From: Eledone cirrhosa
Lineage: Eukaryota
Length of the DNA: 64,000 bases
Assembly: GCA_964016885.1 (NCBI GenBank)
Contig: OZ024748.1
Location: 620,001 to 684,000, forward strand
Reading direction: 5' to 3'
Part shown: piece after piece, positions 9,433-60,371 of the stretch
How the letters are laid out: each line of letters opens with the position of its first letter
Position numbering within the stretch: the stretch's first letter is position 1
Position numbers and translations under genes: made by a program
Notes under the pieces: generated by a model
What the model was told of the DNA's origin: nothing
Seen by the model: the letters and a program-made list of their open reading frames with translations, nothing else
Databases searched by the model: none

Positions 9433-10013
9433 ACTATGAATAAAGAGTTCTAAACTCAAACAGTCCTTTACAATGAAATAGCTCAAAGAAAGAAGTATTT
9501 CTGAGCCGTGTAATACAAGTTAATATAAATTAATATATATGATAAACACAAATACCAACATATAAGTGTTTGTATTGTAAATGACTAAGTTAGCTAGATT
9601 GAAAAATACTAATTATAATAATACAGTTTGCCTGTCTCGATTTAAAATAATAAATCAATAAAAACAAACCATATTGGCAAATGGCCGTGGTACTTGGACA
9701 AATTTAAATTTCAAAATCCAAACCTGTTCCGTAGATAAGTTTAAACTTCAAAATCCAAAAAAGTTATTTGGATTTTGAAGTTTAAACTTATCTACGGAAC
9801 AGGTTTGGATTTTGAAATTTAAATTTGTCCAAGTACCACGGCCATTTGCCAATATGGTTTGTTTTTATTGATTTATTATTTTAAATCGAGACAGGCAAAC
9901 TGTATTATTATAATTAGTATTTTTCAATCTAGCTAACTTAGTCATTTACAATACAAACACTTATATGTTGGTATTTGTGTTTATCATATATATTAATTTA
10001 TATTAACTTGTAT
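9433..10013. mobile_element. Fold-back insertion in (TA)n: ~80-bp tail plus ~247-bp inverted arms; probable PLE terminal remnant
   Basis: Arms 9513-9759 and 9767-10013 are reverse complements around a 7-nt loop; flanked by (TA)n; bulged hairpin at 9480-9507; no canonical hammerhead core seen. Confidence 0.75.
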
Positions 10014-10392
10014 ATATATATATATATATATATATATATAAAATATTGATGGACATATGTATAAAATAACATATCAAACTTTAACAGGAGATAATCTGTA
10101 AAGAACATATAGTTCCGTAAGGTAATGTATCAAAATTTAACAAAGAATTCAAATATACATACATGGCAAAAATTGTTTAAAATATATATATATATATATA
10201 TATATATATATATATATATATATATATGTGTGTGTGTGTGTGAGTGTGTGTGTGTGTGTGTGTGTGTGTGTGTGTGTGTGTGTGTGTGTGTGTGTGTGTG
10301 TGTGTGTAAAAGGTAAACAGAAATAACAACACAATCGGTACAGTATATGGAAGGGATATATAAGGTTAATGCTTGAAATATCAGGAAAAGAG

Positions 10393-10428
10393 TTTTAACG
10401 TTTCGGAGACTAGTCTTTCATCAGAAGA
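10393..10428 (-). ncRNA. Minimal hammerhead ribozyme motif in a PLE pLTR fragment (~10306-10490)
   Basis: Minus strand TT-CTGATGA-aagactagtctcc-GAAA-CG-TT-aaa; helix I is weak. Confidence 0.6.
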
Positions 10429-10788
10429 AAGAATGAGAAATTAGATAGATTGAAGAGACAGGCGGGGTGGAATTGGAAAAAATGTTTTCATATATATATA
10501 CACGCATATATATATATATATATATATATATATATATATTTATATATATATATATATGCATATATATATCATCATTATCGTTTAACGTCTATCTTTCACA
10601 CTAGCATGGGTTTATATATATGCAATCTATATATGTATAGACAGTCCTATACGAGCAGGACAACCAATCTTGCCTCAAGTGGGAAAACTCCCATCCAAAC
10701 CCATGCAAGCGTGGAAGATGGACGTTAAACGATGATGATGATGATGATATATATATGCATCTATCTAGCTATCTATATATATATATAT

Positions 10789-11646
10789 ATCATCATCATC
10801 ATCATCGTTTAACTTCCATATTCCACGCTTGCATGGGTTTGGAAGGGAGTTTTCCCACTTGAGGCAAGAGTGGTTGTCTTGCTCGCATAGGACTGTCTGG
10901 CGGGTTTTCTACGGCTGGATGCCCTTCCTAACACCAACCACATTTACAGTGTGGAACTGGGAGGTTTTTACCGTGTTACCTACATGGTCACATTACAGCG
11001 TGGACTGTGTTTTTTTGTCGTGACACCTACACGACCTCATTTGTTTCGGGCTGGATGTTGTGGTACCAACATAACTTTACATTGAAAGGGGTGGTGTGGA
11101 TGGGGTGGGGGTAGTGGGACGGGGGTATATTTTGTTAGAGGTGCCTACTGACTGTAGTAGGTTTCACTTTGTACTTAGGTAAGGCGGGTCTTCTCTATTA
11201 CTGTGTAGCGCCAAAGATCTCGGTCCAGTGACATTGTCTTGGAGAGGTGTAAGTGTGTGAGGTCAGAATTTATCAAGTCGTCCCAGGTTTTTCTGGGTCT
11301 GCCTACTCCGTGGCTACTGTCTATTTTTATTGCCCTGCACTTTTTTATACAGCTGTCGTCTTTCATGCGCATCACGTGATCATACCAACGTAGCCTTCTC
11401 TCGAGTAAACAACATCTGATCCCTCTTATTTCTAATTTTTCCCTTAGTTCGTTTATGCTTTGCCGTTCACGTATATTACTATTACACATCCAGCGGAGCA
11501 TGCAAGCTTCGTTCCTCTCCAGTCTGCATATATCCTCTGCACACAATGCCCAGGTCTCACTGCCATGCAACATTGCTGTTCGTATGCAGGCATCATACAG
11601 CCTGCCTTTCATTTTTAGGGAGAACCCTTTAGCGGCTAATAGTGGT
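10789..11646 (-). mobile_element. RTE LINE 3' fragment (ORF end, 3'UTR, (ATG)n tail)
   Basis: MLHGSETWAL..ERRLRWYDHVMRM..GRPRKTWDD; 3'UTR ends AAACGATGATGAT; flanked by (TA)n. Confidence 0.92.
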
Positions 11647-11734
11647 ATATATATATATATATATATATATAAATATATATATATATATACACCTATATAT
11701 ATATATATATATATATATATATATATATATATAT

Positions 11735-12159
11735 GTAGGAGGTGAGTTTTATTGTAGTACAATAAAGCAATGCAGATATCGGATAAGAAGCACTCTACAG
11801 TTTGTAGGACTGGAGTATGCATAATATAAGATCAAAAGATGGTTAAAGGAGTTCCATGTATTTTATTATGCGCATTTCAAAAACAAACATCATCATGCAA
11901 TAATATTTGTGTTTTCATCAGATAAAACAGGAGAACATGATATGAAGGCTAAAAAACACTTGTGGATAGTGCAGTTTTAAATCAACATAATATGTTGATT
12001 TAAAACTGCACTATCCACAAGTGTTTTTTAGGCTTCATATCATGTTCTCCTGTTTTATCTGATGAAAACACAAATATTATTGCATGATGATGTTTGTTTT
12101 TGAAATGCGCATAATAAAATACATGGAACTCCTTTAACCATCTTTTGATCTTATATTAT
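11735..12159. mobile_element. Fold-back hammerhead-bearing PLE remnant (tail plus ~168-bp arms)
   Basis: Arms 11821-11989 and 11991-12159; tail 11735-11820; sister copy at 43418-43847 in opposite orientation. Confidence 0.85.
12051..12123 (+). ncRNA. Type I hammerhead ribozyme (mirror copy on the minus strand in the left arm)
   Basis: gttttat-CTGATGA-[aaacacaaatattattgcatgatgatgtttgttttt]-GAAA-tgcgca-TA-ataaaat; palindromic helix III. Confidence 0.8.
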
Positions 12160-12959
12160 ATATATATATATATATATATATATATATTATATATATATAT
12201 ATATATGCATGTATATAAATTAATCTGATACAAATATATATAATACAAGAATAGACATGAAAAACACAGTGATGCAGAAACATTTTATATTTATGTACAT
12301 ATATATAGCTCCATATATACCTATGTGCATGTGTGTGTGTGTGTGTGTGTGTGTACACTGGCGGCACTGTACCTATTTTTCTTTGAAGTTACTAAATTTA
12401 AATTCAAAACTTTCTACTTACTCTAAAAATGATGGTGATGATGACAGTGGTGGTGGTGGTGGTGATGATGATGCTGATGATGATAGTGGTGGTGGTGATG
12501 ATGGTGGTGGTGGTGGTAGTAATGATGATGGTGATGATGGTGGTGGTGGTGATGGTGATGATGATGAAGGCGGTGATGATGATGATGATGATGATGGTGG
12601 TGATAATGATGGTGATGATGACGATGATATTAATGCTTAGGGTGATATTGATGATGAAGATGATGATTTTGATGATGATGGTGATGATGATGATGATTTT
12701 TCATTAAATGTTTAATTTTTATTTTAAATATATTTTTTTACAATATTTTATTATTTCAGTGAGGGTCACGAGGTGTTGGTGGCAGTGGGAGGTAAGTGAT
12801 GTTTGAAAAAATATAATTAAGTCAAGATTGAAATTGTTGATTTTTCTTTTAATTAAAAGAAGAAAAAACGTCTAATTATATATATATATATATATATATA
12901 TATATATAAATACCGTATATTTAAGAAAAAAAAACTGAAACCTTTTACCAAACAATTTG

Positions 12960-58379: not shown

Positions 58380-58437
58380 ATACCTGATGATATCACCGGA
58401 TTCATATGGAACCCGGTCATTGAAATGATCATAGTAT
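58380..58437 (+). ncRNA. Type I hammerhead ribozyme
   Basis: atac-CTGATGA-tatcaccgg..ccggtcatt-GAAA-tgatca-TA-gtat. Confidence 0.75.
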
Positions 58438-58956
58438 AATAAACCTTTCAAGGATTTACACCAGTCCAGCCTCCTGTTATTTTATAATATATATATATAT
58501 ATATTTGCCTACTATATTCTGTCCGCTGGGGGTCACGGTACTGCCAGTGCGTGGGCCCCATTTGCTTATAATAGTGAGAGATGGGGAGAGTGAGAGAGAT
58601 GGAGGCAGGGACTGTACTAGCATTGCTGAAGTATCTTGTAGTGTTAAAGGTTAAGTGATTTTACAGTAAATAATTATATATATATACTTATATATATATA
58701 TATATGTGTGTATGTGTATGAGTGTGTGTGTGTGCATATATGTGTGTATATGTATATATATGTGTATATATATATACACACATACATAAATCGTGTTATA
58801 TATCAATAATGGAGTTGAGTGTGGTTTTTCAACATTTATATTATTCTCTCTCATTCTTGCAGAAAAACATGTAAGATGAATAAAATATTTTAACATTTTC
58901 ATCTTCAATATCCAGCCTTTATATATATATATATATATATATATATATATATATAT

Positions 58957-59264
58957 AAATGAAGTAATTCCGTCGGAAAGGTACAGGAAAAAAGAGTGCT
59001 CTATGTAGGCTACAGAGCTTATTAGTTATGTAATAAGCAACATAAGATAATTATTTCATTTACCAGTGGTTTCTTGAAAGCAGATATAGTATCTGTTTTC
59101 AGTCGTCAGAATGAATAAAAACATGATGTTTTTCAAATCCATATTTAATAAAAACATCATGTTTTTTATTCATTCTGACGACTGAAAACAGATACAATAT
59201 CTGCTTTCAAGAAACCACTGGTAAATGAAATAATTATCTTATGTTGCTTATTACATAACTAATA
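58957..59264. mobile_element. Fold-back hammerhead-bearing PLE remnant (tail plus ~113-bp arms)
   Basis: Arms 59020-59133 and 59150-59264; ttcatt-CTGACGA-..-GAAA-ccactgg-TA-aatgaa at 59169-59229. Confidence 0.85.
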
Positions 59265-59267
59265 TAT

Positions 59268-59600
59268 CATCATTTCATCATTTCATTTTACGTCCGCTTT
59301 TCCCTGCTTGCAAGGGTGGGACGGGAACTGATTCTGGCTTGATTTCTACAGCTGGATGCCCTTCCTAACACCAACCTCATTTACTGTGAGTGGTGGGTGC
59401 TTTTTTTGCCGTGGCACCTCCACGACCACTTTGCAGTGGAATGATAGGGACCCCAGTCCCTATCATCTCATTTCTACAGCTGAGTAAACTGGAGCAATGT
59501 GAAATAAAGTGTCTTGCTCAAGGAAACAACACATTACCCAGTCTGAGAATTGAACTCACAACCTTTCAATTGCAAGGCCAATGCACTAAGCCATGTGCCT
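59268..59600 (-). mobile_element. tRNA/CORE-like SINE with RTE tail
   Basis: Reverse complement of 37329-37660. Confidence 0.85.
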
Positions 59601-59638
59601 CCTATATATATATATAATCCTAAATAATGACCTATATG

Positions 59639-59810
59639 TACCACATTTCCCGGCGTTGAGGATGCTACTTTTTTCCTATAATAAGTCTCAAAAATCTACC
59701 ATGCGTCATGGAGGCCAAAGGTTGTTTATTATTTTTTTTTTAATTTTTGGTGGTCAAAATTAGGGTGCGTCCTCGAGGACGAAGTGTCTTCGGCGCTGAG
59801 AAATATGGTA
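59639..59810. mobile_element. pogo/Tigger-type MITE
   Basis: TA-CCACATTTCCCGGCG ... CGCTGAGAAATATGG-TA: imperfect TIRs with TA duplication. Confidence 0.65.
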
Positions 59811-60371
59811 GATATATTGTTTTACAATCGTTTCAGAGAGTTGATTGATCATGGTAGATCGAATATCAACTAGCGGGTTGTGGTTAAATCACTACCCCCT
59901 CTCTCTCTCTATATATATATATATATATTGTATCTCTGTTCTGTAATACATCTGATAATTTACAATGAGCTATTTCTCTTACTGGTTATCGGGTAGTGCA
60001 GCTTACTACCCTTTCATATTTATAATTATATATAACTTATATATAAGTATAAATAATATTATTAGCATTTATCTATATATATCTATATATCTATATATAT
60101 ACATCATCATCATCATCTTCGTTTAACGTCCATTTTCCATGCTAGCATGGGTTATATATATATATATATATATATATATATATATATATATATATATATA
60201 TATATATATATATATATATATATATATGTATATATATATATATATATATATACAGAGAGAGAGAATAGATAATTAACCAATACAAAAATATCTAAGAGTA
60301 ATGCTAAATCTACACTAACGAATCACCAACCAACCCACAACCCACAACTCACCAACCCACCAACCAACCAA

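Follow-up and report, generated by a model that had tools for sequence, protein, structure and literature searches.

Twin bulged hairpins beside the two 3' ends of Hydra-clade Penelope-like element insertions

What decides where the copy of a Penelope-like element (PLE) ends? The question is raised by 64,000 nucleotides of Eledone cirrhosa DNA (assembly GCA_964016885.1, contig OZ024748.1, positions 620,001 to 684,000), the whole of which we call the window and number from its first letter, and in which a short hairpin with a 2-nt bulge recurs among insertions into (TA)n runs. The animal's genome is 3.0 Gb, and the window is rich in (TA)n runs, LINE (long interspersed nuclear element) fragments and PLE fragments, a repeat content that we take to be like that of octopus genomes. 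An original prediction, made from the letters of the window, listed 17 such hairpins and held that they mark the 3' junction of the insertions. The hairpin motif is real. Judged from sequence, it is one member of a twin cis-element that accounts for both 3' ends of Hydra PLE insertions.

The fold is present at all 17 places, at most 1 nt from where it had been put. Sixteen carry RCTC, as had been claimed for all, and a bulge with T first; the exception, 59938-59970, is a GTTC variant with an AT bulge. The hairpin at 24916-24962 has only two upper-stem pairs before an internal loop, and at 14567 and 58998 the RNAfold minimum-energy structure differs from the motif fold. Set against 30 dinucleotide shuffles in 300-nt blocks, the window has the excess that had been predicted, confined to 2-nt bulges: 27 versus 6.8 with stems of at least 3 pairs, 19 versus 2.8 with at least 4 and 9 versus 1.0 with at least 5, bulges of 0, 1, 3 and 4 nt showing no excess in the same scan. 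Recurrent false matches, with AG or GA bulges, come from two coding stretches of an RTE-like LINE family whose fragments lie at 426-982, 11175-11831, 21483-21872, 31337-31981, 35905-37209 and 39188-40102.

Beyond the window we turned to 59 stretches of 10 kb (590 kb), hand-picked with their content ignored. A refined descriptor (U-first 2-nt bulge and a pyrimidine after RCTC) found 45 matches there versus 12.3 in shuffles (shuffle maximum 18), with five other bulge settings at or below chance; it was fixed after matches at the same loci were known, so this test is not fully blind. The independent test is a marine sample, in which a scan with 42 aligned Hydra-type proteins yielded 78 loci from metagenomes and a further 17 from prokaryote genome records. 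On the sense strand the window-derived pattern occurs in 22 of 72 regions after the open reading frame (ORF) and 23 of 39 before it, as against 5 and 5 antisense and 3.4 and 1.3 in shuffles; other bulge lengths on the sense strand gave 0-6.

A hammerhead core pattern is found in 57 of these 95 loci (one Rfam HH9 match, below gathering score), and the region anchored on it formed 39 clusters. Anchoring on RCTC and GAGY alone gave 43 motif instances from 26 clusters, none dropped and a few spurious, in which pairs were counted by a custom script. The first upper pair forms in 38 of the 43 at the 2-nt register, and in 6, 2, 8, 19 and 12 at registers 0, 1, 3, 4 and 5. The upper stems had been said to vary yet stay paired: this stands for pairs 1-3, whose observed value was reached by none of 5000 permutations (instances treated as unrelated), and not for pair 4 (p 0.13). 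Two clusters have compensatory lower stems, GCAC/GTGC; a search for lower-stem variants by their 3' flank returned three real cases and otherwise mostly noise. T is the first base of the bulge in 41/43, a purine precedes it in 38/43, and A, C and T follow the motif in 37/43 at each position, while loops range from 1 to ~95 nt and the reverse transcriptase (RT) fragments of motif-bearing Hydra elements are 34-66% identical (27 fragments). A selenocysteine insertion sequence was considered and dropped, the AUGA/GA core of such elements being absent from the listed hairpins.

Where, then, do the copies end? Elements in the window run (TA)n, inverted arm, arm, hairpin, 38-125 nt, (TA)n, and genome copies of three families end either at A, 1-7 nt 5' of the hairpin, or at B, further 3'. 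The duplicated arm had been predicted to stop 1-6 nt before the hairpin at (TA)n, and does so at 1-7 nt for 10 window hairpins, with an uncertainty of one or two bases in the offset for elements whose last letters are TA. In full-length leaders the order is hammerhead, ~50 nt, end A, hairpin 1, spacer, end B, hairpin 2, ATG. The hairpin lies 3' of the hammerhead on the same strand, as had been noted, in window elements and full-length leaders alike; the core pattern stands 5' of 6 of 18 window hairpins. Exactly two hairpins, with starts 55-83 nt apart, occur in 13 of 20 upstream leader clusters. The window hairpin is hairpin 1, and the copy that bears it reaches (TA)n 38 to ~125 nt on, directly before hairpin 2. 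It was right, in other words, that the hairpin adjoins a 3' junction, end A, but a full-length leader has two hairpins and two 3' ends. Hairpin 2 is absent from all end-B copies inspected, so the molecule on which it acts must be the template or some longer intermediate.

Metagenome leaders predicted that end B abuts hairpin 2, and so it does in the animal's own genome (40 leaders fetched, several disrupted by other insertions), where end B of the 44k, 46k and L255 families falls 0-5 nt before the second hairpin; the 44k end maps directly before hairpin 2 of full-length leaders L282/L293, and L276 is a full-length leader related to the 46k family. Both hairpins of L255-L263 have very long loops (~63 and ~95 nt, the second with TA-rich repeats), and end B is still 4 nt before hairpin 2. 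Matching ends occur in marine loci, end A in L167, L188 and L196, end B in L246 and L193/L241. With a complexity filter against TA-repeat matches, 119 alignments end within eight leaders. Ninety-eight are joined to (TA)n, and 91 of these lie at most 20 nt 5' of a hairpin (45 at hairpin 1, A; 46 at hairpin 2, B; 7 elsewhere), which bears out the predicted closeness of motif and junction; 11 of the 21 not so joined are also at A or B. In unselected DNA the count is 29/33; a uniform spread would by our own arithmetic give ~17%. Inserted copies end just 5' of cassette 1 or cassette 2, the cassette being the hairpin with its flanks, so that what is called the 'tail' of a PLE is the sequence from one cassette to the other.

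TAT/ATA stands at most 10 nt 5' of 31 of 37 marine hairpins (12.9 in random windows, 19.8 after base shuffling), and in 20/37 it ends 3-4 nt 5' of the hairpin; in most families copies join (TA)n at this same offset. These figures and the junction offsets agree with the earlier suggestion of a cis-acting PLE structure by which neighbouring UA-rich sequence is placed at the (TA)n junction. Might the hairpins have a role in translating or transcribing the downstream ORF, the ends lying nearby only through TA-rich neighbouring sequence? Their 5' flanks are indeed TA-rich, and their spacing to the ORF start is fixed, hairpin 2 standing 12-60 nt 5' of it in most leaders; but other TA-rich leader stretches account for just those 7 of 98 ends, the end-to-hairpin offset is tight, the hairpins are intact in short ORF-less copies and in a 231-bp tandem unit, and the ends obey the pairing rule that follows. 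We regard such a role as highly improbable.

That rule concerns head-to-head insertions: 49 of 50 pair one A with one B end, with a single BB and no AA, drawn from 10 of the 11 families tried (pairs in which an end is at neither site are not counted, and ten duplicate or array loci are omitted). The 20 loci of the 43k-family listing were chosen with a tail-containing query; without tail-selected loci the count is 40/41 (binomial p 2e-11 against one half). Contigs of three runs contained one loose end, at site A. It could be that the hairpins direct formation of RNA 3' ends at A and B, by cleavage, termination or a stop to decay, and that the RT primes at ordinary RNA 3' ends. Frangieh et al. 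found RNA-seq read ends at initiation sites, and the geometry of DNA ends cannot distinguish this from internal initiation. Yet processing would remove the hairpin from the RNA, two RNA species used independently would produce AA and BB insertions, where 49/50 are AB, and the Poseidon element initiates internally on unprocessed RNA (PMC11167929). We give this proposal little credence.

To which elements does the motif belong? Wherever an ORF was linkable they are, on the strength of protein motifs, Hydra-clade PLEs, the hallmarks of which are those motifs, a hammerhead, (TA)n targets and a short single ORF (PMC8557442). ORFs with Hydra-clade motifs lie 5' of the 25k and 18k/33k ends and 3' of the 44k and 46k leaders; single copies provide the link for the 38k and 43k families, that of 38k in L057 standing 3' of a Hydra ORF. 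Single links of the 14.5k, 26k and 59k families may be neighbouring elements, and for the 9.4k, 13.7k, 16k, 57k and 5.6k families no ORF link was found. Both an RT and, at the C terminus, a GIY-YIG endonuclease are present in the 25k-family ORF of L124/L125, while the 18k fragment has a weak GIY-YIG match (E 0.026, below cut-off) and the 25.5k fragment no Pfam match. The consensus of 42 homologues has RWK and, in place of DKG, DKT; L022 has RWR but DKA. L124/L125 carry a CxCX5C linker, with C265, C267 and C273 invariant among homologues, and by eye the Hydra-type endonuclease is without CCHH. Insertion into (TA)n holds across the families examined.

The motif travels with the clade. By eye it is exact in Hydra-2_Amil (a coral), in Hydra-2_Ajap and, twice, in Hydra-1_Ajap (a sea cucumber) among the six Hydra consensi of the PMC8557442 supplement, the remainder comprising two imperfect variants and one without visible motif. 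A marine-metagenome hairpin (L178) is nearly identical, loop included, to the 43k hairpin at 43765-43789. Seventeen Hydra-like loci (L238-L254) sit inside records titled bacterial genomes or symbionts, where they are probably host DNA in the assemblies; viral contigs yielded no relatives. The claim that the motif spans dissimilar PLE families is sound for many Hydra families and stops at a Neptune-like PLE also present in the window (19071-20201; internally inverted; Pfam GIY-YIG E 1e-6), whose family has ends ~40 nt apart and, in L122, L123, L127 and L128, only a CTC/GAG mini-hairpin 3' of end B. Many of the 150 matches listed for it fall in a 784-aa open frame of ~95% identity with an upstream ORF1. 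We rejected a PLE-wide motif on this family and on three 9-letter cores, of whose six occurrences in the PMC8557442 supplement four are in Hydra hairpins and one each in the Naiad and Chlamys files, within coding-like sequence; the consensi may go no further than end A, and some words are hidden by line breaks.

How might twin hairpins set two ends? In a Poseidon PLE the RT starts internally at two sites bounding the tail, with cutting and extension of both strands, a predicted dimer, and a requirement for RNA to +172 though copying starts at +111-118 (PMC11167929). By analogy we infer that A and B are RT start sites. The Hydra hairpins probably bind the RT and mark start sites on the template RNA, each serving one primed target strand, rather than forming a boundary of the telomerase type. 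Twice between hammerhead and ATG, the DNA pattern and covarying fold spell a cassette of UAU/AUA, 3-4 nt, RCUC-Y...R-UN-GAGY and ACU. The RT-endonuclease protein would bind each hairpin, its GIY-YIG domain would nick (TA)n, and the nicked 3' end would pair with UAU/AUA, where copying would begin and proceed 5'-ward, leaving that hairpin uncopied. One event, probably by a dimer, would prime one target strand at cassette 1 and the other at cassette 2, and this would yield head-to-head insertions with a one-sided tail.

The hairpins might instead act as DNA, in single-stranded cDNA or a cruciform, the GIY-YIG endonuclease cutting a longer-than-unit intermediate 5' of them so that A and B are resolution cuts. 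Tails have been ascribed to endonuclease resolution (PMC8557442), and the D. virilis tail is reported as needed for endonuclease recognition (PMC11167929); the TA-rich stretch 5' of each hairpin looks like target, GAG-YR-CTC on the 3' side is near-palindromic in many copies, and wobble counts (8 sense G-U versus 5 A-C, plus 2 A-C closing pairs) do not tell the folding strand. A fixed one-sided bulge, covarying stems and loops of such unequal length, however, fit a folded single strand and not duplex DNA, no inspected end-B copy contains hairpin 2, and in vitro start sites coincide with tail ends in the Poseidon PLE (PMC11167929). We rate DNA resolution as unlikely.

Several points weigh against the hairpins as twin start-site markers, among them the silent wobble counts, the fourth upper pair and the kinship that the permutations ignore. 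Seven of 20 upstream leaders are without exactly two hairpins, the motif was not seen in the available region of 13 of 39 clusters, and hairpin positions in leaders L282 and L031 are those of degenerate copies placed by homology. Pair 1 partly distinguishes the two hairpins, being C-G in 11/13 second ones. Counting against the motif itself, a loose descriptor (any 2-nt bulge) shows a modest excess in the unselected 590 kb (62 versus 44.5), where 0-nt bulges are likewise over-represented (85 versus 45.3) and CTC ranks 12th among 64 cores. Of 14 window families tested, eight lack a secure ORF link of their own, and the Neptune-like family has A and B ends without the motif, which is thus not required for tails in general. 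Start sites of the Poseidon PLE are alike on both strands (PMC11167929). If the antisense-template model raised for PLEs in PMC3846280 were true, the role of the hairpins would need rereading.

Known systems offer partial parallels. Telomerase has a template boundary element, 5' of the template, that stops copying; in hepadnaviruses the start is set by a bulged hairpin, epsilon. Like the Hydra hairpins as proposed here, both are RNA structures beside the template that position an RT. The proposed analogy to the telomerase element fails on polarity, since on the hammerhead/ORF strand the hairpins stand 3' of the end of the copied sequence. Epsilon templates from its bulge and is protein-primed, whereas the Hydra start would lie 5' of the stem base with nicked DNA as primer. 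Poseidon_Ac shares two 3' ends around a tail and head-to-head insertions with a one-sided tail (PMC11167929; tail and inverted pseudo-long terminal repeat, pLTR, in PMC8557442 and PMC3846280), as well as AT-rich targets and required RNA 3' of the start site (PMC11167929). It differs in that an 'AC-rich stem loop' contains the start, where Hydra elements have the twin bulged hairpin 3' of each putative start; in its PAc RNA one sees, by eye, nothing more than a CUC/GAG mini-hairpin (+126 to +139), which lacks a U-first bulge. Tails are ~55-165 nt in the Hydra elements here, as against 30-40 there.

A likeness noticed post hoc is to the arginine sandwich of HIV TAR and 7SK (PMC6189040, PMC6140463), which shares the paired purine, the U-first bulge and G-A-G opposite C-U-C plus a pyrimidine; TAR variants with a UU bulge exist in the same sources. 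The Hydra hairpin has the sequence features of the sandwich: a paired base precedes a pyrimidine in the bulge, and G and an A-U pair come next. TAR and 7SK are circularly permuted relative to it, however, the loop closing the other helix; its conserved 3' ACU flank has no counterpart in TAR, and the two GCAC/GTGC clusters would lose the U-A-U triple. In 39 of 42 Hydra proteins an arginine-rich segment lies after the thumb and before WFNPP (mean 3.9 Arg per 12 residues versus 0.7 overall), modelled at low confidence (predicted local distance difference test score 42 at residues 181-190) within the C-terminal 410 residues. Tentatively, then, twin TAR-like arginine-sandwich hairpins on one RNA might each dock one subunit of an RT-endonuclease dimer and so set the priming register for both (TA)n strands; the ~30-nt cassette would be a portable start signal explaining tails and inverted pLTRs, with the CUC/GAG mini-hairpins of Poseidon and Neptune as reduced relatives.

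Table 1. Elements and hairpins in the window
Feature	Positions	Strand	Remarks
43k family hairpin 1	43765..43789	+	inverted arm 43413-43765 stops at site A on (TA)9 43403-43420
43k family, remainder of tail	43790..43847	+	stops at site B on (TA)10; 20/20 tail-selected loci end here
Hammerhead core 5' of 43k hairpin 1	43658..43704	+	pattern match only; mirror copy at 43520, - strand
Second 43k-family insertion	11734..12159	-	inverted arm, hammerhead core (11921), hairpin 1 11792-11816, tail
44k family	43868..44274	-	hammerhead core 44026-44056, hairpin 1 43931-43956, tail to end B
Hydra-type ORF, N-terminal fragment	44267..44752	-	RWR and DKT motifs
Inverted arm of 44k element	47161..47473	+	stops at site A on (TA)16
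25k family inverted arm, hairpin 1 (24916-24962), tail to end B	24878..25149	-	
Hydra-type RT-thumb/GIY-YIG fragment and 3' untranslated region	25149..26150	+	stops at site A on (TA)12
26k fold-back insertion	26175..26480	-	hairpin 1 26258-26290
46k family	45702..46640	+	inverted arm 45702-45978 (end A), hairpin 1 46487-46520, tail ~120 nt to end B
13.2k insertion, 46k-related	13207..13480	-	hairpin 1 13207-13240
Direct-repeat unit	13506..14388	+	pLTR 13506-13700, hairpin 1 13702-13737, hammerhead-like core 14008, pLTR 14189-14388 ending at site A; no ORF linked
9.4k family hairpin 1 (9481-9506) and tail	9434..9506	-	no ORF linked
Hairpin 1	14567..14585	+	69 nt 3' of hammerhead-like core; weak fold
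16k family hairpin 1	16172..16195	+	tail end 48 nt on; no ORF linked
16k family hairpin 1, copy two	28543..28566	+	
33k element, related to 18k Hydra family	33619..33803	+	hammerhead core, hairpin 1 33723-33742, tail
38k family hairpin 1, 48-nt loop	38010..38079	-	arm copy 17780-17900 ends at site A
Hairpin	57810..57834	+	(TA)n 74 nt 3'; no arm or ORF linked
59k fold-back insertion	58958..59264	-	hairpin 1 58998-59018
Variant hairpin (GTTC, AT bulge), 46k-related	59938..59970	+	
Hairpin pair 93 nt apart, beyond the original list	5588..5705	-	5682-5705 (weak) and 5588-5612; may be hairpins 1 and 2
Hydra-type GIY-YIG fragment, 18k family	17967..18385	+	genome copies end at A or B

Hydra families nest, later ones inserting into (TA)n beside earlier insertions (43848-43867 and 26151-26174 in the window; L131, L133). 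Elsewhere they form tandem arrays: at L129:498-1192 each 231-bp unit has a hammerhead core, hairpin 1, tail and (TA)8, much like a retrozyme, and at L029:2700-3500 a ~570-bp tandem unit has a hairpin, with no ORF seen. The window also holds a ~21-bp tandem repeat with several long open frames (52655-54170; up to 482 aa, YTES repeats) and two LINE C-terminal fragments with, by eye, zinc-finger and restriction-like endonuclease features (48610-49209 and 50361-51473).

Has the motif been described before? No Rfam model matches any of the hairpins: among the best 150 of 270 matches in the window none reaches gathering score, most being microRNA models on TA repeats and palindromes, and 20 leader-bearing loci gave chance microRNA matches and one hammerhead, with nothing at the hairpins. 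In literature on PLEs, retrozymes and octopus repeats we found no description (subscription journals, Repbase notes, and picture and bioRxiv supplements lay outside that coverage). The word 'hairpin' has no occurrence in the available texts of PMC4209133, PMC7229834, PMC3846280 and PMC13282606, where no such motif appears, nor does one in that of bioRxiv 10.64898/2026.07.22.740005. PMC11167929 mapped start sites in a single element and proposed, but did not define, a binding motif, and its available text describes no conserved start-site motif for Poseidon_Ac; 'hairpin' is likewise absent from the available main text of PMC8557442, though by eye three of its six Hydra consensi have one. A clade-wide twin cis-element has apparently gone undescribed so far.

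It is unlikely to be rare. Some 33 excess matches per 590 kb suggest, roughly and from hand-picked stretches, on the order of 100,000 copies in the 3.0-Gb genome, and the motif provides a sequence rule for finding ORF-less Hydra derivatives. How PLEs pick internal start sites, and why the tail is one-sided, is a standing question, which a short twin motif at both ends makes testable with small RNAs. Since telomerase RT and the RTs of PLEs are sister groups, template positioning in Hydra PLEs bears on the origin of telomerase.

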